NCBI GenBank assembly: GCA_958296235.1 | Contig: OY282457.1 | Span: 635,769-699,768 of the forward strand | DNA from: an uncultured Candidatus Binatia bacterium | Lineage (GTDB): Bacteria; Desulfobacterota; Binatia; Bin18 | Reading direction: 5' to 3' | Length of the DNA: 64,000 nucleotides | Shown: piece after piece, positions 1,690-37,931 of the stretch | Numbering within the stretch: position 1 is the stretch's first letter | How the letters are laid out: each line of letters opens with the position of its first letter | Notes under the pieces: generated by a model | The model's database searches: none | What the model was told of the DNA's origin: nothing | What the model saw: the letters and a program-made list of their open reading frames with translations, nothing else | Translations under genes and position numbers: made by a program

Positions 1690-1790
1690 GTCAGGCTCCA
1701 CTCCGCTCATCCTTAAACTTCCCCTCACCCTCTCCCCCAAGGGGCGAGGGGATAAGACAAGACTCCCCCAATCCCTAATCCCCAATCTCC
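1690..1790. repeat. GC-rich hairpin REP-like element (singleton in window)
   Basis: Intergenic ccctcaccctctcccccaaggggcgagggg palindromic stem. Same sequence style as the other hairpin repeats (translates as PSPxGEG in ORF artefacts). Confidence 0.35.
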
Positions 1791-3193
1791 GGGCGACGCT
1801 CGCCCACCCGCGTGGCCTGCTCAAACGCATAGGCTAACTGAAGCACCCCCAATTCGTTCTGGTGCCGACCAACGATCTGCACCCCAACGGGCAGGCCCTC
1901 TGGTGTAAAGCCGCACGGCACTGAAATGGCCGGCAGGCCGGTGACGCTGATATAGTAACACGAGCGCATCCAGTCCAAATATGTCTCCATCTGTACGCCG
2001 TTAATCTCCCGCACGTAGCGCTGTTTGACATCAAACGGCGGCACCTGAGAGACGGGCGCAATGAGAAACTCGTACTGTTCCATGAACGCATGCACCCGAT
2101 GATAGAGCAGCGTCCGCTTTTTCTCGGCCTGCCCGATTTGCGGGCCGGTGAGTTTTGTCCCTTCTTCAATATTCCAGATAACCGTGTCCTTCATTTTGTC
2201 CCGATGTTCGGGCAGCAGCTCGCCCAAAGACAGCTCAAAATACCACGCCCGCCACACGCGAAAGACTTCGTCAGCGTCTTTGAAATCGGGCGTCGCTTCC
2301 TCGATGACGCAACCCAGGTCAGCAAACACGGCCCGCTGGCTTTCGAGCGCCGCGGTCACGCGGGCGTCCACCGGCAGGCCACCCAGCGTCGGACTCCAGG
2401 CAATCCGTGTATCCGCAAAAGAACGTTCAAGGGGCTGAAGAAACTGCGCGCCCGATTGGGGATTAGCAATCGGCGCCCGAGGGTCAGGCCCGGCCATAAC
2501 GCTCAGCAACAGCGCCACATCCTGCACGGTGCGCGCCAGCGGCCCTTCGACGGCAAACGGAAACCAGCCGACCCGGTGCGGCCAGGTGGGCACCCGACCG
2601 GGCGAGGGGCGAAACCCGACGACATTGCAAAAACTGGCCGGGTTGCGCAGCGAGCCGCCCAGGTCGCTGCCGTCGGCAATCGGCAGCATCCCGATCGCCA
2701 GCGCCACCGCGGCTCCACCGCTGCTGCCCCCACAGGTTGTGGAGAGATCGTATGGGTTGAGTGTTTCACCAAACACTTCGTTATACGTTTGCGAGCCGGC
2801 CCCGAACTCGGGCGTATTCGTCTTGCCAATGGCAATCGCGCCGGCGGCGCGCAGGCGTTCGACAATAATCTCGTCCTGGTCGGGAACAAAGTCGGCAAAG
2901 ATCGGCGAGCCGAGCGTGGTGCGTATGCCTTTGGTCAAGACCAAATCCTTGTGCGCAATGGGCAAGCCGTGCAGCGGGCCAACCGCCTGGCCTCGCCCGA
3001 GCGTTTCATCGGCTTCGGTCGCCCGCTCCAGGCCCCGCTCGGCCAACAGGGTCACAATCGCGTTCACCCGCGGATTGATGCGGTCGATCCGGGCCAGGTG
3101 GGCTTCCAGGACTTCCCGACATGACACTTCGCGGGCGCGAATGCGCGCGGCCAGTTCGGTTGCGCTGAGAAAACAGAGTTCGGCAGCAGACAT
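1775..3193 (-). CDS. Amidase-signature family amidase (GatA-like)
   Basis: 472 aa with the GGSSGGAAVALA amidase signature and a Ser-cisSer-Lys context. Confidence 0.85.
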   Translation of the reverse strand: MSAAELCFLSATELAARIRAREVSCREVLEAHLARIDRINPRVNAIVTLLAERGLERATEADETLGRGQAVGPLHGLPIAHKDLVLTKGIRTTLGSPIFADFVPDQDEIIVERLRAAGAIAIGKTNTPEFGAGSQTYNEVFGETLNPYDLSTTCGGSSGGAAVALAIGMLPIADGSDLGGSLRNPASFCNVVGFRPSPGRVPTWPHRVGWFPFAVEGPLARTVQDVALLLSVMAGPDPRAPIANPQSGAQFLQPLERSFADTRIAWSPTLGGLPVDARVTAALESQRAVFADLGCVIEEATPDFKDADEVFRVWRAWYFELSLGELLPEHRDKMKDTVIWNIEEGTKLTGPQIGQAEKKRTLLYHRVHAFMEQYEFLIAPVSQVPPFDVKQRYVREINGVQMETYLDWMRSCYYISVTGLPAISVPCGFTPEGLPVGVQIVGRHQNELGVLQLAYAFEQATRVGERRPEIGD

Positions 3194-10191: not shown

Positions 10192-13100
10192 CTACGCTGG
10201 AACGGGCGCGAGTTCATCCAGCAATGCCTTTGCCGCCCGCAGGTCCGGCGTTTCCAATCCCTCGGTAAACCACCCGTAGATATTCGAGAGGAGCTGGTAG
10301 GCGTCGTCCGGCTGGCCGCTCTCTTGCCATACTGCAGCCAGACGAAGCGCGCTGCGGAGTTCCAGGGATTTTGCCTGCTGAGTCTGGGCGGTCTGGATGG
10401 CGCGCTGAAAACAGGCCGCGGCTTCCGGGCGGTTTTGATCCGGGCCGTTTGTGGCCGTGAGGAATAATTCCCCCCGAGTGCGCAGCAGTTCAGCCTGCCA
10501 CCATTTTTCGTTGCTCTTGTCCATCTCGGCTTCCGCTTCGATCAACACGGCGAGGCCGTCCTGGACTCGATCGACCTTGCCATAGGCTTCCGCCAAAAGC
10601 AGAGACAGTTGGCCAAGCTGCCGAATGCCGGACTCCTGCCAGATGCGCTGGCCCTCCAGCATGTCGGCGATGCCCTCTTCGACATGGCCCTGTTCGGCTA
10701 AGGCCCAACCGCGCAAATAGGTCCCGGCGGCCTGAAAGTACGGAAATCCCTGCTCACTCGCCAGGGCGACCACGCCCTCTGCCTGGGTCTGGGCCAGCGC
10801 CCCTTCTCGTCGAAAGCGATAGACCGCAGTTCCAAAATGCAGGGCAAAGACCAGACTGTACGGATGGGACATCTCTCGGGCGCGCGTGATGGCTTCCTGG
10901 CTGCGCTGGAGGGCCTGGTCGGGATAACCAAGATGCCACAGCATCCAGGCCAGAAAGGCCAGACTCGAAACACCAGGGTCCTGGCCTATCACTCCCTGCG
11001 CGTTCTCCGGGCCGTGGACGCTCGGATCATACATGTCCACGGAACGTTCCAGATGCGCTCTGGCGTCAGCAAACTCGCCCAACCGAAAGGCCGTCAAGCC
11101 CAGCGCCTGCTGGGCCGGCAAGAATTGCTGGGAGCCGGGCATACACTCGGACAGGCAGCGGAGCTTTTCAATCACCTCTCCCGCGGCGGCATACTCGCCG
11201 CGCACGAGATGAAACCGCCATAAGCCAAACAGGACGGGGAACTTCTGCGGCAGGTCCCCAATCGTGTGCGACAGTTCGCGGGCGCGCGAGTACACGCGCT
11301 CTACTTCCGGCGCGGCGTACCCTTTGGTTGCCATCAGGCACGAGCCGAGTGAGATCAGCAGGGTCAGCTCTTGCTGCGGGCGGTCTGGGGCGGGAGGCAA
11401 CGCCGGCAGCAGGTCCAGCGCATGGTTCAGATCACGAATCGCCTCAGTATAGGCAGACTGCTTGAGCGCCATCTCTCCGGCGCGTTGATAGTACTCGACG
11501 GCTTTTTTCGTATTGCCGCTGTGGGCGGAATGATAGGCGAGTTCTCTGAGGCGGCGGTCATTCAGCTGCGCGTGAAACAGGGATTCAATGGCCTGGGCCG
11601 TCCGGGCGTGCACGTCCTGGCGGCGCTCGGATACAAGCGAGTTATAGGAAACATCCTGGGTAAGCGCGTGCTTAAAGGTATATTCGACTTCGGGAAAGGC
11701 GGGCTGCTCATAGATAAACTCCGCGGTTTGCAAACGGGATAGCACGGGAACGAGGGTTTCCTCAGCCTCCTGGGTCACTTGGGTCAGGAGGCTGAGCGAG
11801 AACTCCCGGCCAATCACCGCCGCGGTCTGGAGCAGGGCTTTTTCTGCTGCGCCTAATTGGTCGATACGCCCGGCCAGCACCCCCTGGACGGTCGCTGGGA
11901 TATGGACCTCAGCAAGCGGCCTGGTAAGGGAAATGCCACCCATCCCACGGACCAGGACACCTTGGTCAAACAGCGTTCGGACCATTTCCTCCATAAAAAA
12001 GGGCGTCCCCTCTGTTTTCTCCAGTATGAGCTGTTTGAGCGGTTCGAGCGAAGCGGCTGTGACCGGCCAGTTTGCTTCGTCGAGGAGCGCGGCCAGGAGT
12101 TCCTTGGCATCTTCCATACCCAGCGCATCGAGGCGGAGCTGGCTGTAATAGGTCTTGCTGCCCCACTCATGCCGGTACTCCGGGCGATAGTTCGTCAACA
12201 GGAGCATGGGCGCGGTGGCCAGGCTCTCACTCAGGGCATCCAGAAAAGCCTGCGTCCCATCGTCCAGCCATTGCAAGTCCTCAAAAATCAGCACGACCGG
12301 CTGGGTGAGACTTTCACGCAGCAGGAGGCGTTTGATGGTGTCAAAGGAGCGTTGTTGGCGGATGTGGGGGTCCATCTGTTGCAACGCCGCGGTGAACTCC
12401 GAATGGCCTAAGAGGCTGAGCAGATAGGGCAACCCGTCTTCGAGCGCACGCTCAAGCGCGACCACGCGACCGGCGACTTTTTCATGCAGCGCGCGCTCAT
12501 CATCCTGGGGGCGAATCTGGAAATAATTCTTCAGCAACTCAATCAGGGGCAGATACGCATGGCCTCTACCATGTGCGACACAAAATGTTTCCAGGACAAG
12601 ACAGTGTTGCTCGGACAGCGCTTTGAATTCGTGAAACAGCCGGGACTTGCCAACTCCCGGCTCGCCCATCACGCCGACGATCTGGCCCTGTCCGTTGGTG
12701 GCTTGTTCGCGGACCTGTTTGAGATGTTCGATTTCTTTTTTTCGCCCGACAAAACGAGACAGGCCGCGCGTGGCTGACACCTGGAGACGGGTCCGTAACG
12801 CGCCAACCCCGAGGAGTTCGTAAATCCGTAAGGGCTCGCTGACGCCTTTGATCTTCGCCGCGCCCAAATCCTTGAACTCGAAATAGCCCTCAGCAAGCTG
12901 GTGGGTGTACTCACTCACGACCGTAGAGCCCGGCGTGGCCAGTCCTTCCATGCGGGCCGCCAAGCTGGTCGAATGACCAACCGGCACATAGTCAGTATGC
13001 AGATCGTTTTTGCGAATGGAGCGTACCACCACCTCGCCGGTGTTGACGCCCACCCGCATCTGAAGATTGACCCCTTTGTCAAGCCGGAGCTGTTCGGCGT

Positions 13101-13617
13101 AGGCTTTCCCCTCTGCCTGCATGCGTAAGGCGGCAAACAAGGCCCGCTGGGCATGGTCTTCATGGGCGATAGGCGCGCCAAAGAGGGCAAAAATGCCATC
13201 GCCCATAGACTGGGCCACATAGCCTTCATAGCGATGCACGGCAGCCATCATGAGTTGCAGGGCCGGGTCAATAATGGAGCGGGCTTCTTCCGGGTCAAGG
13301 TCCTCAATAAGTTCCATCGAGCCCTTGATATCGGCAAACAGCGCGGTAATGGTTTTCCGCTCTCCATCAACCGCCCCACGCGCTTCGAGCGCGGCCTGCT
13401 CAGCGCGGATGCGCTCGGCCAGATGGGGCGGGGGATTGGGGGTGGGGGATTGGGGATTGGGCAGCCTGGCGAGTGACGTCCCGCATTCCATACAGAATTT
13501 GGCTCTGGGGACGTTCTCACCGCCGCAGTTCGGACAGCGGTTCTGGAGCGCGGCTCCGCATTCGATACAAAACCTTGCGCCGTCGGGATTGTCGGTATCA
13601 CACTGGAGACATCGCAT
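10192..13617 (-). CDS. Multidomain signalling protein: double zinc ribbon - class III adenylyl/guanylyl cyclase - AAA/NB-ARC-like ATPase - TPR repeats
   Basis: 1141 aa. N-terminal CxxC x4 (RCLQCDTDN...CPNCG...CMECG), cyclase catalytic core (FADIKGSM...GDG), P-loop GEPGVGKS, long TPR/helical C-terminal region. Confidence 0.8.
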   Translation of the reverse strand: MRCLQCDTDNPDGARFCIECGAALQNRCPNCGGENVPRAKFCMECGTSLARLPNPQSPTPNPPPHLAERIRAEQAALEARGAVDGERKTITALFADIKGSMELIEDLDPEEARSIIDPALQLMMAAVHRYEGYVAQSMGDGIFALFGAPIAHEDHAQRALFAALRMQAEGKAYAEQLRLDKGVNLQMRVGVNTGEVVVRSIRKNDLHTDYVPVGHSTSLAARMEGLATPGSTVVSEYTHQLAEGYFEFKDLGAAKIKGVSEPLRIYELLGVGALRTRLQVSATRGLSRFVGRKKEIEHLKQVREQATNGQGQIVGVMGEPGVGKSRLFHEFKALSEQHCLVLETFCVAHGRGHAYLPLIELLKNYFQIRPQDDERALHEKVAGRVVALERALEDGLPYLLSLLGHSEFTAALQQMDPHIRQQRSFDTIKRLLLRESLTQPVVLIFEDLQWLDDGTQAFLDALSESLATAPMLLLTNYRPEYRHEWGSKTYYSQLRLDALGMEDAKELLAALLDEANWPVTAASLEPLKQLILEKTEGTPFFMEEMVRTLFDQGVLVRGMGGISLTRPLAEVHIPATVQGVLAGRIDQLGAAEKALLQTAAVIGREFSLSLLTQVTQEAEETLVPVLSRLQTAEFIYEQPAFPEVEYTFKHALTQDVSYNSLVSERRQDVHARTAQAIESLFHAQLNDRRLRELAYHSAHSGNTKKAVEYYQRAGEMALKQSAYTEAIRDLNHALDLLPALPPAPDRPQQELTLLISLGSCLMATKGYAAPEVERVYSRARELSHTIGDLPQKFPVLFGLWRFHLVRGEYAAAGEVIEKLRCLSECMPGSQQFLPAQQALGLTAFRLGEFADARAHLERSVDMYDPSVHGPENAQGVIGQDPGVSSLAFLAWMLWHLGYPDQALQRSQEAITRAREMSHPYSLVFALHFGTAVYRFRREGALAQTQAEGVVALASEQGFPYFQAAGTYLRGWALAEQGHVEEGIADMLEGQRIWQESGIRQLGQLSLLLAEAYGKVDRVQDGLAVLIEAEAEMDKSNEKWWQAELLRTRGELFLTATNGPDQNRPEAAACFQRAIQTAQTQQAKSLELRSALRLAAVWQESGQPDDAYQLLSNIYGWFTEGLETPDLRAAKALLDELAPVPA

Positions 13618-20316: not shown

Positions 20317-21567
20317 TTACGATGTCTGGCGCGCAGGGCCGTTTTGGTCTGATTGTTGCGGAGGAGACGGACGTTCCTTGAGACGCACGCTCACGCTCGC
20401 CGGGTCCATACCGGCGACCTGGAGGCCGAGGGGGACATTAATATCGCGCTCGGTCAGGGGAAGGCGGCTCCGCCCGGCCCGAGCGCTTGAAAGATCGACC
20501 TGCGCCCGCAGGCCACGCGGGTCAAGCAAGGCCAGCAGCTCACGCGATCCCCGCACCCGCAGATAGACCTCTTGGGTGTTCTTGCCGGCCATGTCCAAAT
20601 GCCTGGGGATATTGTAGTAGACCACAGGAACCGCAAACCCGACCTCAGTGTTTTGCGGGCCAACCAGGATCAGCCAGAGGACGCAGACTGCCGCCAGGGC
20701 GCCCAGCTTGGGGCGGATATTGGTCTTCAGCATGTCACGCCAGCGCCAGTGGGTACGCCTTTTCCTGGTCCCGGAAAGACGCAGATTCAGCCAGGTCAAC
20801 AGGCCGGCCGATTCCGGCAGCGTCACCATACCGCCCCGGTCGACAACGGAGACCTCGCCCCGCTCTTCCGAAACAACGACAGACAGCGCGTCGGAACGCT
20901 CCGTAATTCCCAGCGCGGCCCGATGACGAGTCCCATACGTATAGGGCAGCGAACGTGACTCTGAAAGCGGCAAAATACAGCCCGCCCGGCAGACCCGCCC
21001 GGCCCGAAAATAAACGGCGCCGTCGTGCAGCGGGCTGGAGGGCGTAAACAGATTATCAAGCAGCAAATCGCTGACCGCGGCATCAATCAGGACGCCCTGG
21101 CTGCGCAAGAGAGGTTCGACCGGATCGTTCCGTTCAAAAACGAGGATGGCGCCGCGGCGCTTTTTCGCCAGGCTGAAACACGTCTCCGCTATTGTGACCA
21201 GGAAATCGGCAACCCAAGTCTCAGCAGAGGTTCGACGAAACATCTTTGGAGTGGACAGGACAGGGTTGACCTGCTCAAGAATCTGACGAATTTCAGCCTG
21301 GAACACGACAACGACCAGAATAAAGGCCGCGGCCCAAATACCACCCAGCACCCAGGTGGTTAAAAAAAGCCCCGCTTGGCTGGCCAGGAAATAGAACAGA
21401 CCGAGTACGGCCAGCCCCACGCCTATCCGTGCGGCCTGCGTACCACGAAAGCGGATGTAGGCCTGGTATACGACAAACGCCATACAGGCGATGTCGATCA
21501 TATCTCGCCAGCGAAATTCCCAGCCGAGACGCCAATCGGGCGGTAGGAAATCCAAAAATTCTGTCAC
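20317..21567 (-). CDS. cdaA: Diadenylate cyclase CdaA (3 TM helices + DAC domain) fused to a TM helix and a YbbR/CdaR-like domain
   Basis: DAC motifs LHDGAVYFR, YGTRHRAALGITE. After a further TM helix (LGALAAVCVLWLILV) there is a YbbR-like beta-rich segment. GTG start at 21567. Confidence 0.7.
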   Translation of the reverse strand: MTEFLDFLPPDWRLGWEFRWRDMIDIACMAFVVYQAYIRFRGTQAARIGVGLAVLGLFYFLASQAGLFLTTWVLGGIWAAAFILVVVVFQAEIRQILEQVNPVLSTPKMFRRTSAETWVADFLVTIAETCFSLAKKRRGAILVFERNDPVEPLLRSQGVLIDAAVSDLLLDNLFTPSSPLHDGAVYFRAGRVCRAGCILPLSESRSLPYTYGTRHRAALGITERSDALSVVVSEERGEVSVVDRGGMVTLPESAGLLTWLNLRLSGTRKRRTHWRWRDMLKTNIRPKLGALAAVCVLWLILVGPQNTEVGFAVPVVYYNIPRHLDMAGKNTQEVYLRVRGSRELLALLDPRGLRAQVDLSSARAGRSRLPLTERDINVPLGLQVAGMDPASVSVRLKERPSPPQQSDQNGPARQTS

Positions 21568-21573
21568 GCTTTG

Positions 21574-21948
21574 TTACTCGGTGTAGTTCTCGTAAAAAAC
21601 ATAACTGGTTGAATAATCACTGAATTCAAAATAGACCTTCTTCTCGCCTTCATCGACCCGGAAATTCAAATTCTGGTCGGCATAGCCATAGCCAAAACGG
21701 TAGGGTCTCGCCGTACTTCCGTCGCCGGTTGCCGCCGCGGTGCTGAGCTTATCGATCTCAATAAAGCGCAGCACAAGCTTTTCTCCGGCATAAATATCCA
21801 ACACGCCGTTGGTGCCCGTCCAGTTTTGAATGGAACGGCTCAGCATATTCTGCGATTCCTGCGTACAACCAGCGAATCCTCCCGCCAGCCCACCCAGGAG
21901 AAGTCCGGCGACAATGCTGCTTCGAGAATACTTCCACAAGCCCTGCAT
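21574..21948 (-). CDS. Lipoprotein (hypothetical), upstream of cdaA
   Basis: Signal peptide with lipobox LAGGFAGC. 7-bp gap to cdaA. Confidence 0.55.
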   Translation of the reverse strand: MQGLWKYSRSSIVAGLLLGGLAGGFAGCTQESQNMLSRSIQNWTGTNGVLDIYAGEKLVLRFIEIDKLSTAAATGDGSTARPYRFGYGYADQNLNFRVDEGEKKVYFEFSDYSTSYVFYENYTE

Positions 21949-22123
21949 AAATAATTCCTTACACGCGAACGTCTCTCATGGTTCAGATTATCATTCCTCC
22001 TTGCCACACGCAAAATACGGCGTAGTTTTTCCACTCCCCTACACGTCTCAACAGTGCACTCTTGACCCTCCCCCAGGGAACCCATACTGAGCAGAGAGAA
22101 ACTTCTACCTGGCTGTCCATTCC

Positions 22124-22190
22124 CCACTACCCACTACCCACTACCCATTCCCCACTATCCACTAATCACTACCCACTATCCACTATCCAC
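22124..22190. repeat. Heptanucleotide tandem repeat (CCACTAY)x~9.5 abutting the degT-like start codon
   Basis: ccactac x3, ccattcc, ccactat, ccactaa, tcactac, ccactat x2, ccac-ATG. No purine-rich SD. Confidence 0.8.
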
Positions 22191-23303
22191 ATGGCCATTC
22201 CCTTGCTCGACCTCACAGCTCAATACGCCACCCTCCGGCAGGAAATCCAGGCTGCGGTTGCGCGCGTTCTGGAGTCTCAGCAATTCATTCTGGGACCAGA
22301 GGTGGAAGCCTTGGAGCAGGAGGTCGCCGCCTACTCTGGGTGTCGGTACGGGATCGGGGTATCATCCGGCACGGATGCCCTGCTGGTCGCCCTGATGGCG
22401 ATCGACATTCAGCCGGACGATGAAGTCATCACTTCGCCGTATACCTTTTTCGCCTCAGTCGGGAGCATTGCCCGCCTCGGAGCGCGGCCGGTTTTTGTTG
22501 ATATTGACCCGCTGACGTATAATCTGGACCCGGCCCGGATTGAAGCCGTCATCACCCCGCGGACTCGGGCCATTATCCCGGTTCATCTGTTTGGCCAGAT
22601 GGCGGACATGGACCCGATGCTTGAGATTGCCGCTCGCCGGAATCTTTTTCTGATCGAAGACGCGGCTCAGGCAGTTGGCGCAGAATACAAAGATAAGCGC
22701 GCCGGCTCGCTTGGGCATTTGGGGTGTTTGAGTTTTTTCCCTTCTAAAAATCTGGGTGGCTATGGTGACGGTGGGATGGTGATTACCAATGACGCGCAGC
22801 TGACCCAACGGGTCAGACAGCTACGGAGTCATGGGGAGCAGGCCAGGTATGAGCATACGCGGGTGGGCGGAAATTTTCGTCTGGACGCCCTCCAGGCCGC
22901 AGTGCTGCGCGTCAAACTGCGGCATTTAGATGCCTGGACGGCTGCCCGGCAGCGCAATGCCGACACCTATCGCCGGCTGTTTGCTGCCCACGGACTCGGA
23001 GAGATGAGTCTGCCGGTCGAGGCCCCGCAGCGGCGCCATGTCTATAATCAGTTTGTGGTCCAGAGCGCCCACCGGGACGTTCTGTTGGCACGGCTTCAGC
23101 GCGAGGGGATCGGTACGGCCATTTACTATCCGACACCGCTCCATCTCCAGCCCTGTTTTGCCGCTTTGGGCTATGAGCGTGGAGCCTTCTCCCACAGCGA
23201 ATACGCAGCAATGCACAGCCTGGCCCTGCCCATCTATCCAGAGCTTACCCCGGCCATGCAGGAAGAGGTGGTGCGGGCTATTGCGGCATTTCATCGACAC
23301 TAG
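22191..23303 (+). CDS. DegT/DnrJ/EryC1/StrS-family PLP aminotransferase (sugar aminotransferase)
   Basis: MAIPLLDLTAQYATLRQEI canonical N-terminus. 370 aa. Confidence 0.85.
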   Translation: MAIPLLDLTAQYATLRQEIQAAVARVLESQQFILGPEVEALEQEVAAYSGCRYGIGVSSGTDALLVALMAIDIQPDDEVITSPYTFFASVGSIARLGARPVFVDIDPLTYNLDPARIEAVITPRTRAIIPVHLFGQMADMDPMLEIAARRNLFLIEDAAQAVGAEYKDKRAGSLGHLGCLSFFPSKNLGGYGDGGMVITNDAQLTQRVRQLRSHGEQARYEHTRVGGNFRLDALQAAVLRVKLRHLDAWTAARQRNADTYRRLFAAHGLGEMSLPVEAPQRRHVYNQFVVQSAHRDVLLARLQREGIGTAIYYPTPLHLQPCFAALGYERGAFSHSEYAAMHSLALPIYPELTPAMQEEVVRAIAAFHRH

Positions 23304-35216: not shown

Positions 35217-36086
35217 TTACTTTGCCTTGTATTTGTAGGCAAGGCGTAAGAGTTCTTTGAGGATTTCGGCGCTGGAATGGATGTCGTCCTCCTTCAATTG
35301 AAGACGATAGCGGCGGCCCTTGTACTTAAGCGTAGTAAACCCAGCGTTCTCTATTTTCTCGTCAAGTTCGTCGGTACGTGGCAATTTAATCCTGACGGTG
35401 ATCTTATCTTTCAGCGGCTTGAACCACACAAAATTGTAAGGTCGGCCGTCCTTCTCGATGCCGATGTACTGTTTGTTGTATTTCAGGCTCAGGCTTGAGT
35501 CGATTTCACGCATGATATCTAGCATTTGGTCGGCCAAGGCGACGGTCTTCGTCGCGCGCTTCTCCCAATAAGCCCGGTCGGTCGGCGCGGCCTGGGCAGC
35601 CTCATCGTCGTCATCGACGAGGCCACGTTCCAACTCATCCATCACCTTGGTGAACACGACAGTCATATTTTCGCCGACCTGAACCGCCTGCATCTGGATG
35701 GCGATCAGCGGAAGTGCGCCGTTGAAAAGCGATATGACGTTAAAAAAGCGGCTCGTAATATCTTCCGCAACGATCACTGCGCAGTGGTCGTACTGCGGGT
35801 AATGCCTTTTCTCGATGTCCCAGTACTCAATTGTCCTGATGATGTGCGACTCGTCTGTTGCCCCGAGCTGAATTTCAACCTCGTATCGCCGCGCCGTCTC
35901 GGTGTCCTCAAGTAGTAGGTCAAGCCTTCCTGCGTGAGGCTGTCTCCGTTCCCTGTCCCGCAGGAACAGATCGCCTAATCCGAGAACTGATGGATCGTCC
36001 TCGATGAGATTCTGGATCCATCTCTCTTTCAAGGTCGGATGCTTTTTAAGAGAGAAGGGTTCCGGTTTCAGATAGTTGTTATTCAT
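35217..36086 (-). CDS. Hypothetical protein with PD-(D/E)xK-like nuclease core plus a conserved C-terminal domain, inserted between hyuB and hyuA
   Basis: GRLDLLLED ... YEVEIQLG resembles D...(D/E)xK. C-terminal YIGIEKDGRPYNFVWFKPLKDKITVRIKL...TLKYKGRRYRLQL block. By eye, GC is lower than the neighbours. Start ATG 36086 (MNNNYLK). ORF-track start 36191 would overlap hyuB. Confidence 0.5.
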   Translation of the reverse strand: MNNNYLKPEPFSLKKHPTLKERWIQNLIEDDPSVLGLGDLFLRDRERRQPHAGRLDLLLEDTETARRYEVEIQLGATDESHIIRTIEYWDIEKRHYPQYDHCAVIVAEDITSRFFNVISLFNGALPLIAIQMQAVQVGENMTVVFTKVMDELERGLVDDDDEAAQAAPTDRAYWEKRATKTVALADQMLDIMREIDSSLSLKYNKQYIGIEKDGRPYNFVWFKPLKDKITVRIKLPRTDELDEKIENAGFTTLKYKGRRYRLQLKEDDIHSSAEILKELLRLAYKYKAK

Positions 36087-36206
36087 TACACCAGCCCTAC
36101 TTCCCAGCTGCGAGTTTGCACAGGGCAAGGTTGGCGGTTTCGTATTCAGACATGCTGCGTTTCCTTCTGGCGTCTTGCCGGCTTCTTTCACCGCTGACTG
36201 CGCCGT

Positions 36207-37931
36207 TCATTTTCCGACCGCGAGTTTGCGCGGCTCGTCCGCTTCGACCCGGACGCCGTACTCTTCCCAGGCGGCCTGGACGGACACGAAGCCGTTGCGT
36301 ACGTCTTCGAGCACCTTGGCCCGGTCGCGTTCACGCGGGTCGCCCACGCCGCCGCCGCCGGGGTTCTGGTTGGCGAAACGCTCGCCCGGCTCGATTTCGG
36401 CGATCCGGTTGGTCTTGATCTCCTCGATATTGCCGTCTTTCTTGTAATACAGCGCCCGTCCCACCTTGGGTTCGCACAGCGTCGAGGCCGCGCCGAGCGC
36501 GCCCTGGGCCGGGTAGCGCCGTCCTTCGCCAAACATGACAACCGTCATGGGGTCGTGGAGCGGTTCGACTTCCCAGTGCGTGCCCGAGCCGCCGCGCAGT
36601 TTCCCGGCCCCGCCCGAGTCCGTCATCAGGCCGTAGCGGTGAATGATAATCGGATATTGGTATTCAAGAATTTCAATATCGCCGCTTGTTAAGGCGCCAA
36701 AACAGCACTGCGGACCCACGGCCGGCCAGCCGTCCGTCTTATGCGAGGCGCCGCCACCGCTGATAATCGTCGCCAGGATCATGGACACGTATTCTTCGCC
36801 CGAGCGGTAATCCTGCCCGGCAATATTCAGTCCGTTTGAATGTCCCCAGGAAGCCACCGCCTTTTCGGGCAGGGCTTGTTCGAGCGCCATACGCACAGCA
36901 TCCGTAATCGACTCTGACGGGGTGGTTGTACAGTTGGCGTGCGGCGCCGGTTCCTGGGCGTTGGTAAGGGTGCCTTCCGGGCCGACATCAACACTAATAG
37001 GCCGATACAGCCCCTCGTTATACGGCGGGGGCAGTTGGGCGAACATCATCACCCCGAGATACACCCCGGACAGCGAGTTGGCCGCATAGGAATTGATGAA
37101 ATACGGAATCTGGGGCGGGCTCGCCAGCGCAACGGCCATAGTGTCGCCAGCGACCTCAACGGTCGCCGCAATCTCGATATCACCATAGCCATGCCCAGCG
37201 TCTTCGAGCACGGATTTCCCGTGATAGGTTCCGTCAGGAATAGCGCGGATAAATGCCCGCATCTGGTGTTCGGCCAATTCGAGCAATTCCGCCATACAGG
37301 CCATGACCATATCTTTGCCGTATTTCTCCAGCAGACCGAGCAGGTTGCGTTCGCCAATTGTGACCGCGGCAAGCTGGGCGCGCATATCGCCGGCCTGGAG
37401 TCGGCGGGAGCGGACATTGGTCAGAATAAAATTCACCACATCGCGTCGCTCTGTTCCGCGGTCCCGTATTTTCAGCGGCGGAATACGCAGGCCCTCGGCA
37501 TAAATCTCTTTGGCCTCGGGGTTATAGCCGGCGGGCACCGGGCCGCCGATGTCGGTGACATGGCCTTTGCTGACCGTCCAGAACACGAGTTCGTCCTGGT
37601 AGAAGACCGGCTTGTACATGCAGCAGTCAACAATATGGGAGCCGCTCCAGGCCGGATCGTTATGATAGAACACATCACCGGGATGGATATCGTCACCGAA
37701 ATAGCCGGCAACAGTCCGCAGGGCCGGCATGAGGGAGCCTAGATGAATAGGGATATCCTGGCCTTGCAGAATCATCTCGCCGGAGCCGAGAAACAGGGCG
37801 TTGGAGTAATCGCGCGCAATATTAAAAACGGACGAGCGCGATGTTTTCTCAATGGTCAGCGTCATCTCACGCTGGGTTGATTCAAGCATGCCCTGGACAA
37901 CGGCCAGGGTAATGGGGTCGGTCTTTGCCAT
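36207..37931 (-). CDS. hyuB: Hydantoinase B/oxoprolinase (HyuB family)
   Basis: 574 aa, MAKTDPITLAVVQGMLEST... Confidence 0.85.
   Translation of the reverse strand: MAKTDPITLAVVQGMLESTQREMTLTIEKTSRSSVFNIARDYSNALFLGSGEMILQGQDIPIHLGSLMPALRTVAGYFGDDIHPGDVFYHNDPAWSGSHIVDCCMYKPVFYQDELVFWTVSKGHVTDIGGPVPAGYNPEAKEIYAEGLRIPPLKIRDRGTERRDVVNFILTNVRSRRLQAGDMRAQLAAVTIGERNLLGLLEKYGKDMVMACMAELLELAEHQMRAFIRAIPDGTYHGKSVLEDAGHGYGDIEIAATVEVAGDTMAVALASPPQIPYFINSYAANSLSGVYLGVMMFAQLPPPYNEGLYRPISVDVGPEGTLTNAQEPAPHANCTTTPSESITDAVRMALEQALPEKAVASWGHSNGLNIAGQDYRSGEEYVSMILATIISGGGASHKTDGWPAVGPQCCFGALTSGDIEILEYQYPIIIHRYGLMTDSGGAGKLRGGSGTHWEVEPLHDPMTVVMFGEGRRYPAQGALGAASTLCEPKVGRALYYKKDGNIEEIKTNRIAEIEPGERFANQNPGGGGVGDPRERDRAKVLEDVRNGFVSVQAAWEEYGVRVEADEPRKLAVGK

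Follow-up and report, generated by a model that had tools for sequence, protein, structure and literature searches.

Heptamer repeats are over-represented in bacterial genomes, as has been recognized since 2007. In marine Beggiatoaceae and in some Cyanobacteria and Bacteroidetes, the repeated unit is TAACTGA; these repeats stop a few nucleotides before start codons, a Shine-Dalgarno (SD) sequence is found in only ~10% of the repeat-containing intergenic regions, and a role in SD-independent or protein-mediated translation initiation has been proposed for them (MacGregor, 2015; PMC4679880). G-rich heptamers, namely GGGAATC in Xanthomonas and GGGGA(T/C)T, including the cyanobacterial STRR, in Nostoc, occur either on the non-coding strand, 0–50 bp before an ORF, or on the coding strand, where they overlap stop codons, and the excess of heptamers has been ascribed to polymerase slippage (Rehm et al., 2015; PMC4692102). 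In Haemophilus influenzae, the (ATCTTTC)n tracts of hmw1A and hmw2A lie between promoter and start codon, are polymorphic in populations and form a long hairpin with a G-rich partner, with cleavage by RNase III (PMC8262952; PMC12721329); expression of hmw1A is inversely proportional to repeat number (PMC12721329). Genes devoid of an SD depend on being locally free of structure (Scharff et al., 2011; PMC3121790).

The array described here lies in a 64-kb stretch of DNA (the window, meaning the whole stretch that was analyzed) and leads directly into the gene of a DegT-family aminotransferase (hereafter DegT; Table 1). Judging from its sequence features, it is best read as a member of the known bacterial heptamer-repeat class (TAACTGA, GGGGAYT/STRR), with which it shares a tandem 7-nt unit in an intergenic position, polarity with respect to the ORF boundary, and variation in length and sequence at a conserved location. 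Like the TAACTGA repeats, it ends at a start codon without an SD. However, its units are different (CCACTAY, CCACTAA, TCACTAC, and CCATTCC), it is a single array of ~10 copies in 64 kb compared with 2–6 copies at 169 loci in one genome (PMC4679880), and it has a traceable origin and strain-level alleles. Its 7-nt unit, mostly intergenic class, strand polarity and variability at a conserved site match GGGAATC and GGGGAYT, and the lack of a link to surface or virulence genes is also common to both; in contrast to the repeats of Rehm et al., its units contain only two or three C each and its capacity to form a G-quadruplex (G4) is not conserved among alleles. As in hmw1A and hmw2A, a heptamer tract that is polymorphic in the population separates the start codon from a promoter, here a candidate one, but the DegT array is imperfect and directly replaces the SD. 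Finally, it resembles SD-independent unstructured leaders in lacking an SD and in having a start codon that is predicted to be unpaired, the difference being that these leaders reflect a genome-wide tendency (Scharff et al., 2011, PMC3121790; Nakagawa et al., 2017, PMC5397173) whereas the DegT leader is built of repeats. On balance, we consider it probable that an array of the heptamer class displaced the ancestral ribosome-binding site of DegT and now forms an unstructured leader, composed of C, A and U only, on which initiation at the AUG proceeds without an SD.

Table 1. Positions of the features of the DegT locus within the window.
Feature	Positions	Strand	Details
Divergent 124-aa gene	21574..21948	-	Lipoprotein-like signal peptide; no Pfam/NCBIfam match
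Candidate promoter	22062..22090	+	TTGACC (22062-22067), 17-nt spacer, TACTGA (22085-22090)
Decayed ancestral ribosome-binding region	22091..22108	+	GCGGAGAG to GCAGAGAG; MAFFT alignment
Ancestral start relic CTGGCTGTCC	22109..22118	+	Homologous to ATGGCTGTCC (Met-Ala-Val) of array-less orthologues
G-free stretch, 77 nt	22116..22192	+	Array and AT of the start codon; RNA predicted unpaired
Heptamer array	22117..22190	+	CCATTCC, CCACTAC x3, CCATTCC, CCACTAT, CCACTAA, TCACTAC, CCACTAT x2, CCAC
DegT/DnrJ/EryC1/StrS-family PLP aminotransferase, 370 aa	22191..23303	+	Pfam PF01041, E = 2e-120

The array is a 74-base imperfect tandem repeat of ten full units and a final CCAC, which runs into ATG 22191 with a gap of 0 nt, and its C-rich strand is the sense strand of DegT. 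Tandem Repeats Finder reports period 7 for 22123-22190 (9.7 copies, 83% matches, score 87) and also a period-28 superstructure for 22117-22190. All six occurrences of the two-unit pattern CACTAHYCACTA in the window fall inside the array, against 0.00 expected from 100 shuffles, and a pattern search of the 64-kb window found no second CCACTAY array. The original prediction had the array begin at 22124 with about 9.5 heptamers; the array itself stands, whereas position 22124 is that of the first CCACTAC and the true beginning is one unit earlier. As also predicted, the array makes up the whole translation-initiation region of DegT and directly abuts the ATG. There is no SD before this codon, because not a single G is present in the G-free stretch of Table 1.

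On the evidence of its homologues, ATG 22191-22193 is the true start of DegT: an M-x-x-PLLDL N-terminus is found at this position in 120 of 120 homologues among the matches listed, and the Pfam domain begins at residue 15. In the 90% cluster of the protein, the only named member is a MAG labelled 'Desulfurellaceae bacterium'; the next named homologues, at 73% identity or less, belong to Caldilineae, Anaerolineales, and Roseiflexaceae. The protein falls under the cut-off of every specific NCBIfam equivalog. Two other starts were considered and rejected. The frame of DegT is open through the array from TTG 22062, which would allow an N-terminal extension, but alleles of 82 and 55 nt shift the frame and the homologues start at M-x-x-PLLDL; moreover, the upstream open frame of the window is not conserved, since one of the alleles (L001) closes it by an in-frame TAA 18 nt before the ATG. 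Downstream, an alternative start with an SD, which would have argued against the array as initiation region, was sought without a convincing candidate: the sole SD-like one, flagged by a crude SD scan, is TTG 22311 (codon 41), which is preceded by GAGGTGGAAG and falls inside both the conserved PEVEALE motif and the Pfam domain. ORFs that may stay open through arrays, as this one does, are a warning for annotation. In a related lineage (L006), the called DegT product has 390 aa, of which 20 are an N-terminal extension through an array. To judge from its other genes, the organism of the window does use the SD mechanism, strong and well-spaced SDs of the GGAGG type being found at ~20 of the 44 long ORFs of the window, where 26% are expected by chance under the same permissive test.

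The surroundings of the array are conserved. In all relatives fetched, the gene order comprises a PLP decarboxylase, CdaA and the 124-aa gene on the opposite strand, DegT, and 5-oxoprolinase-like genes; the closer lineages also have a luciferase-like gene after DegT. DegT and the divergent 124-aa gene share an intergenic region of 242 bp, whose candidate promoter has both hexamers, TTGACC and TACTGA, and their 17-nt spacing invariant in 10 orthologous loci, the sequence of the spacer varying between clades. The -10-like TACTGA is devoid of the consensus final T, and a scan for consensus sigma-70 promoters over 21500-22700 called none, including this pair. A terminator scan over the same interval returned two terminator-like sites, at chance level, and a search of the whole window against Rfam at gathering thresholds gave no match. 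On the minus strand, a nearly invariant block (21981-22016; TTTTGCGTGTGGCAAGGAGGAATGATAATCTGAA in minus-strand sense) is located upstream of the 124-aa gene; it contains a strong AAGGAGG, which is followed by tiny ORFs (MII* and MRDVRV*) ahead of the AAGGAA-ATG of the 124-aa gene itself. The block may be a leader or regulatory element.

Array-less orthologues in the same syntenic context, at 86–91% nucleotide identity in DegT (L003/L212, L004, and L007-L011), preserve the ancestral layout: an invariant TTGACC-N17-TACTGA-GCGGAGAG block is followed by a short purine-rich leader (e.g., GGGAAAGAAG) and then by the start, so that GGAGAG and GGGA(A/G)(A/G)GAAG are found 8–12 nt before ATGGCTGT(C/T)CC. 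The lineage of the window keeps the TTGACC-N17-TACTGA block (22062-22098), but it has lost the 10-nt SD core (GGGAAAGAAG in L003) between 22100 and 22101, and the ancestral start has become a relic on the left of the array, in which ATG is changed to CTG and which is out of frame with the present ORF. MAFFT, unprompted, aligned ATGGCTGTCC with the CTGGCTGTCC of the window and opened a gap of 10 nt where the SD core would be. The start region is present a second time on the right of the array, as ATGGCCATTCCC, and this copy provides the present initiation codon. The relic on the left and the start copy on the right indicate that the array expanded just inside the ancestral 5′ end of the coding sequence. 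Traced through these alignments, the array originated by expansion at the 5′ end of DegT in one species-level lineage.

A separate lineage, L006, which is 12–14% divergent from all others, appears to represent an intermediate stage. In its region 850-1130, the old SD and ATG are intact and open a 9-codon uORF (MAVPFLTNH*), the end of which lies in a degenerate array; another short degenerate array precedes the real start, and an inverted copy, GTGGTTAGTGGCTAGTGGG, lies further upstream. Since arrays occur in L006 and in the clade of the window but the intervening lineages have none, their distribution calls for repeated loss, repeated gain or recombination. The locus is thereby a rare before-and-after series, in which SD and ATG are kept (sister lineages), an array coexists with a uORF (L006), or the array stands alone (window). 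What is new here is such an explicit evolutionary series for a minisatellite that relocates a start codon and erases an SD, together with four alleles that co-exist in one community.

These alleles come from five array-bearing conspecific genomes, whose flanks are 97–99.8% identical and whose arrays have four lengths. Measured as the distance from CTGGCTG to ATG, the allele is 75 nt long in the window and in L213, 69 nt in L214, 82 nt in L001, and 55 nt in L002, with a longest perfect run of five units in L002 compared with three in the window. The original prediction had proposed that repeat number be compared across strains, an invariant number counting against it, and copy number did prove to vary. 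L001, L002, L213, and L214 lie on separate contigs within a single metagenome assembly (ERZ19489113), so that one community harbors all four alleles; a metagenome scan for more close alleles returned only relatives at 67% identity or less. The array is hypervariable and evolves much faster than its flanks, given that L001 and L002 are different at 0 of 1113 nt in DegT and nevertheless have arrays that differ by 27 nt and by several unit types. On the other hand, the array is identical in the window and L213 despite 1.3% divergence of their DegT, from which it follows that the rate is not extreme or that recombination shifts alleles among strains. Length, unit order and the reading frame through the array are not conserved among alleles; a complete lack of G and the ending YCAC-ATG are common to all of them.

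Such variability raises the question of a contingency locus, in which slipped-strand changes in the number of heptamers would switch or grade DegT and bring about a phase- or level-variable modification of a surface sugar on the model of hmw1A. The four length alleles in five conspecific genomes, two of which have an identical DegT, are what this reading would lead one to expect, as are the position of the heptamer tract upstream of the start, which is that of hmw1A (PMC12721329), and the assignment of DegT as a sugar aminotransferase. The label of a classic slipped-strand phase switch that the original prediction had given to the array does not fit the locus well, however. The array is outside both the ORF and the candidate -35/-10 interval, and thus neither a frameshift nor a spacer-type ON/OFF mechanism is available to it. 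Its imperfect units (83% matches), with a longest perfect run of only three in the window, would lower slippage rates, and the window and L213 have one and the same allele in spite of the 1.3% divergence of their DegT. The hairpin with a G-rich partner on which the hmw mechanism relies is not predicted for DegT, the neighboring genes are 5-oxoprolinase-like and luciferase-like instead of a glycan cluster, and in many other phyla similar arrays precede housekeeping genes such as those for IspD, RNase PH, LpxD, and PrmC. Taken together, these observations make a contingency locus unlikely.

If the candidate promoter is used, the array would be transcribed within a leader of ~94 nt. Folds of this leader, which assume a transcription start 6 nt after TACTGA, give a mean unpaired probability over -20 to +15 of 0.82 in all array alleles vs. 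0.38–0.57 in the array-less orthologues. In the minimum-free-energy structure the array is unpaired, and the stability of a 304-nt fold is below that of shuffled controls (z = +1.04). No inverted partner of the array was found within 1.5 kb, and no hmw-like hairpin was predicted. The original prediction had also put forward the array as an SD-independent enhancer, which is plausible in view of the predicted unpaired leader and of the SD that the array-less sister lineages have. By contrast, we regard it as highly improbable that the array bears the promoter itself, such that the mRNA would be leaderless or nearly so and an SD unnecessary: the array does adjoin the ATG without a spacer, and A-T-containing hexamers such as CACTAT and TATCCA recur in it every 7 nt, but no unit can form a TANNNT -10, the promoter scan found nothing, and a conserved -35/-10-like pair is located upstream instead.

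Arrays of this kind are not confined to DegT. When one genome per species was searched for four consecutive CACTAHY units, at least 120 loci were obtained, where we estimate roughly 0.06 matches by chance, and these YCACTAN loci are distributed over Planctomycetota, Bacteroidota, Chloroflexota, Cyanobacteria, Acidobacteriota, Verrucomicrobiota, Proteobacteria, and Firmicutes. Among the CACTA-seeded loci in the matches listed, period 7 accounts for 299 arrays and any other period from 5 to 12 for at most 11. About 90% of the YCACTAN arrays among the matches listed are intergenic according to a crude ORF analysis; with the C-rich strand on top, the median gap to the ORF for 86 such arrays is 17.5 nt on the 3′ side vs. 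155 nt on the 5′ side, and the nearer ORF is on the 3′ side in 69 cases and on the 5′ side in 15 (p = 1e-8). In the 51 cases among the matches listed in which the right-hand gene is encoded on the opposite strand, the median gap is 2 nt and the stop codon is often within the array, because TAG and TGA arise from the complement TAGTGA; where it is on the same strand (35 cases among these matches), 13 arrays end within 30 nt of the start. Arrays among the matches listed are commoner at gene 3′ ends (61) than at 5′ ends (38), and a role at the start codon is therefore not a general property of the YCACTAN class. At least 10 housekeeping genes without an SD, from several phyla, have their starts -1 to 13 nt downstream of a YCACTAN array. 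They code for a beta-CASP RNase, UbiE, a squalene/phytoene synthase, IspD, PrmC, LpxD, a T2SS-F/PilC protein, ChuX, RNase PH, and MgtE, and the starts of these ten genes are confirmed by Pfam domains that begin at the N-terminus. A literature search for CCACTAA, CCACTAT, and CCACTAC and their complements found nothing relevant.

The C-rich units also bring to mind a DNA-structure element, in which the template (GGGTAGT)n would fold into a G4 and the sense strand into an i-motif, thereby regulating transcription as has been proposed for GGGAATC and GGGGAYT. A motif of four C3+ tracts separated by N1-7 is indeed present in the window, L213, and L214, and the G-rich strand is non-coding and 0–50 bp from the start, the arrangement preferred by G4-forming heptamers (PMC4692102). 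This motif is missing from L001 and L002, however, most of their units being CCACTAT or TCACTAT with only two C, and most YCACTAN arrays elsewhere among the matches listed (TCACTAT, CCACTAA) are unable to form three-tetrad G4s. A structural role of this sort therefore has very little probability in our assessment.

Another alternative is that the array is a functionless by-product, i.e., a neutral or slightly deleterious minisatellite generated by polymerase slippage with a preference for 7-nt units. It would have damaged the initiation region, and DegT of this lineage would be poorly expressed and under relaxed selection. The polymorphism of DegT bears on this point. Within the array clade, its polymorphic codons include 14 nonsynonymous and 17 synonymous ones, vs. 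10 and 60, respectively, for four neighbors pooled (CdaA, the 124-aa gene, the luciferase-like gene, and LamB/YcsF); this excess of nonsynonymous polymorphism in DegT (Fisher p = 0.0018) comes from a small sample in which recombination is not controlled for. In a McDonald-Kreitman-type contrast with fixed differences, p is 0.03 when L003 is the reference and 0.08 when L004 is. The excess could reflect relaxed or diversifying selection, and on account of it we give the by-product reading a small probability. The sister lineages manage without an array, YCACTAN arrays occur in every intergenic configuration across phyla among the matches listed, and polymerase slippage is the cause to which the excess of heptamers has been attributed (PMC4692102), all of which would be in keeping with a by-product. 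On the other side, the DegT ORF is intact in 5 of 5 array-bearing genomes and its codons 1–40 are free of amino-acid polymorphism, every allele is G-free and ends in YCAC-ATG, and essential genes follow such arrays in other phyla. In addition, the old SD and ATG decayed only in the lineage with the new start, which argues that the new start works.

We return to the displacement of the ribosome-binding site as the preferred reading. The anatomy of the locus, its origin and variability, the missing SD and the lack of predicted structure are shown by the sequences; where transcription begins, how the ribosome initiates and whether copy number affects expression are matters of inference. The array expanded in the extreme 5′ end of DegT, just past the third codon of the ancestral ORF, and moved the old SD and ATG ~80 nt upstream. 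There, they have decayed by deletion of the SD core, by conversion of GGAG to CAGA within the stretch that follows the -10-like hexamer (GCGGAGAG to GCAGAGAG), and by mutation of ATG to CTG, whilst the duplicated start on the right of the array (ATGGCCATTCCC) has taken over. Transcription most likely still proceeds from the conserved upstream TTGACC-N17-TACTGA and would produce a 5′ leader of about 75–100 nt, formed by the array and composed of C, A and U only. Being devoid of G, this leader would be unable to fold and would leave the AUG fully accessible, and initiation would be SD-independent, by virtue of the absent structure and probably also of binding by ribosomal protein S1. Use of an AUG without an SD on an unstructured leader fits the reliance of SD-less genes on absent structure (PMC3121790). 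Slippage or recombination rapidly alters the number and composition of units and with them the length of the leader, which may tune expression without acting as a binary switch.

A bolder extension, which we consider improbable, is that G-free YCACTAN arrays, and perhaps all bacterial heptamer arrays, form a self-expanding leader module that is able to take over initiation from the SD across phyla and serves the ribosome, or an RNA-binding protein such as S1 or a cold-shock protein, as an unstructured landing pad, with the number of units as an evolvable rheostat and a polar mechanism of placement at ORF boundaries. For the DegT locus itself, the four alleles of one community are material for asking whether repeats replace a ribosome-binding site and whether their length tunes expression.

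Other repeats and genes of the window are mentioned here in their own right. A (CCCCAAT)3-type array, CCCCCAATCCCTAATCCCCAAT, at 1766-1787 overlaps the 3′ end of an amidase gene (1775..3193, minus strand), whose TAG stop (complement of 1775-1777) lies inside the array with the same polarity as in stop-overlapping G-rich heptamers. A GGGGATT/CCCCAAT array of 4.4 copies (13425-13461), whose unit is that of the Nostoc STRR/GGGGAYT, is found inside a 1141-aa ORF (10192..13617, minus strand), where it encodes a Pro-rich linker, LPNPQSPTPNPPPH, between N-terminal zinc-ribbon-like and cyclase-like regions. Longer units also occur: a 204-nt tandem repeat (30086-31493; 6.8 copies, 88% matches) encodes 68-aa units in a 1304-aa ORF (29014..32928, minus strand). 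Finally, two adjacent genes on the minus strand (33101-37931) score above the cut-offs of the equivalogs for the caprolactamase alpha and beta subunits (NF050156 and NF050157), and several amidase genes are located near this pair.
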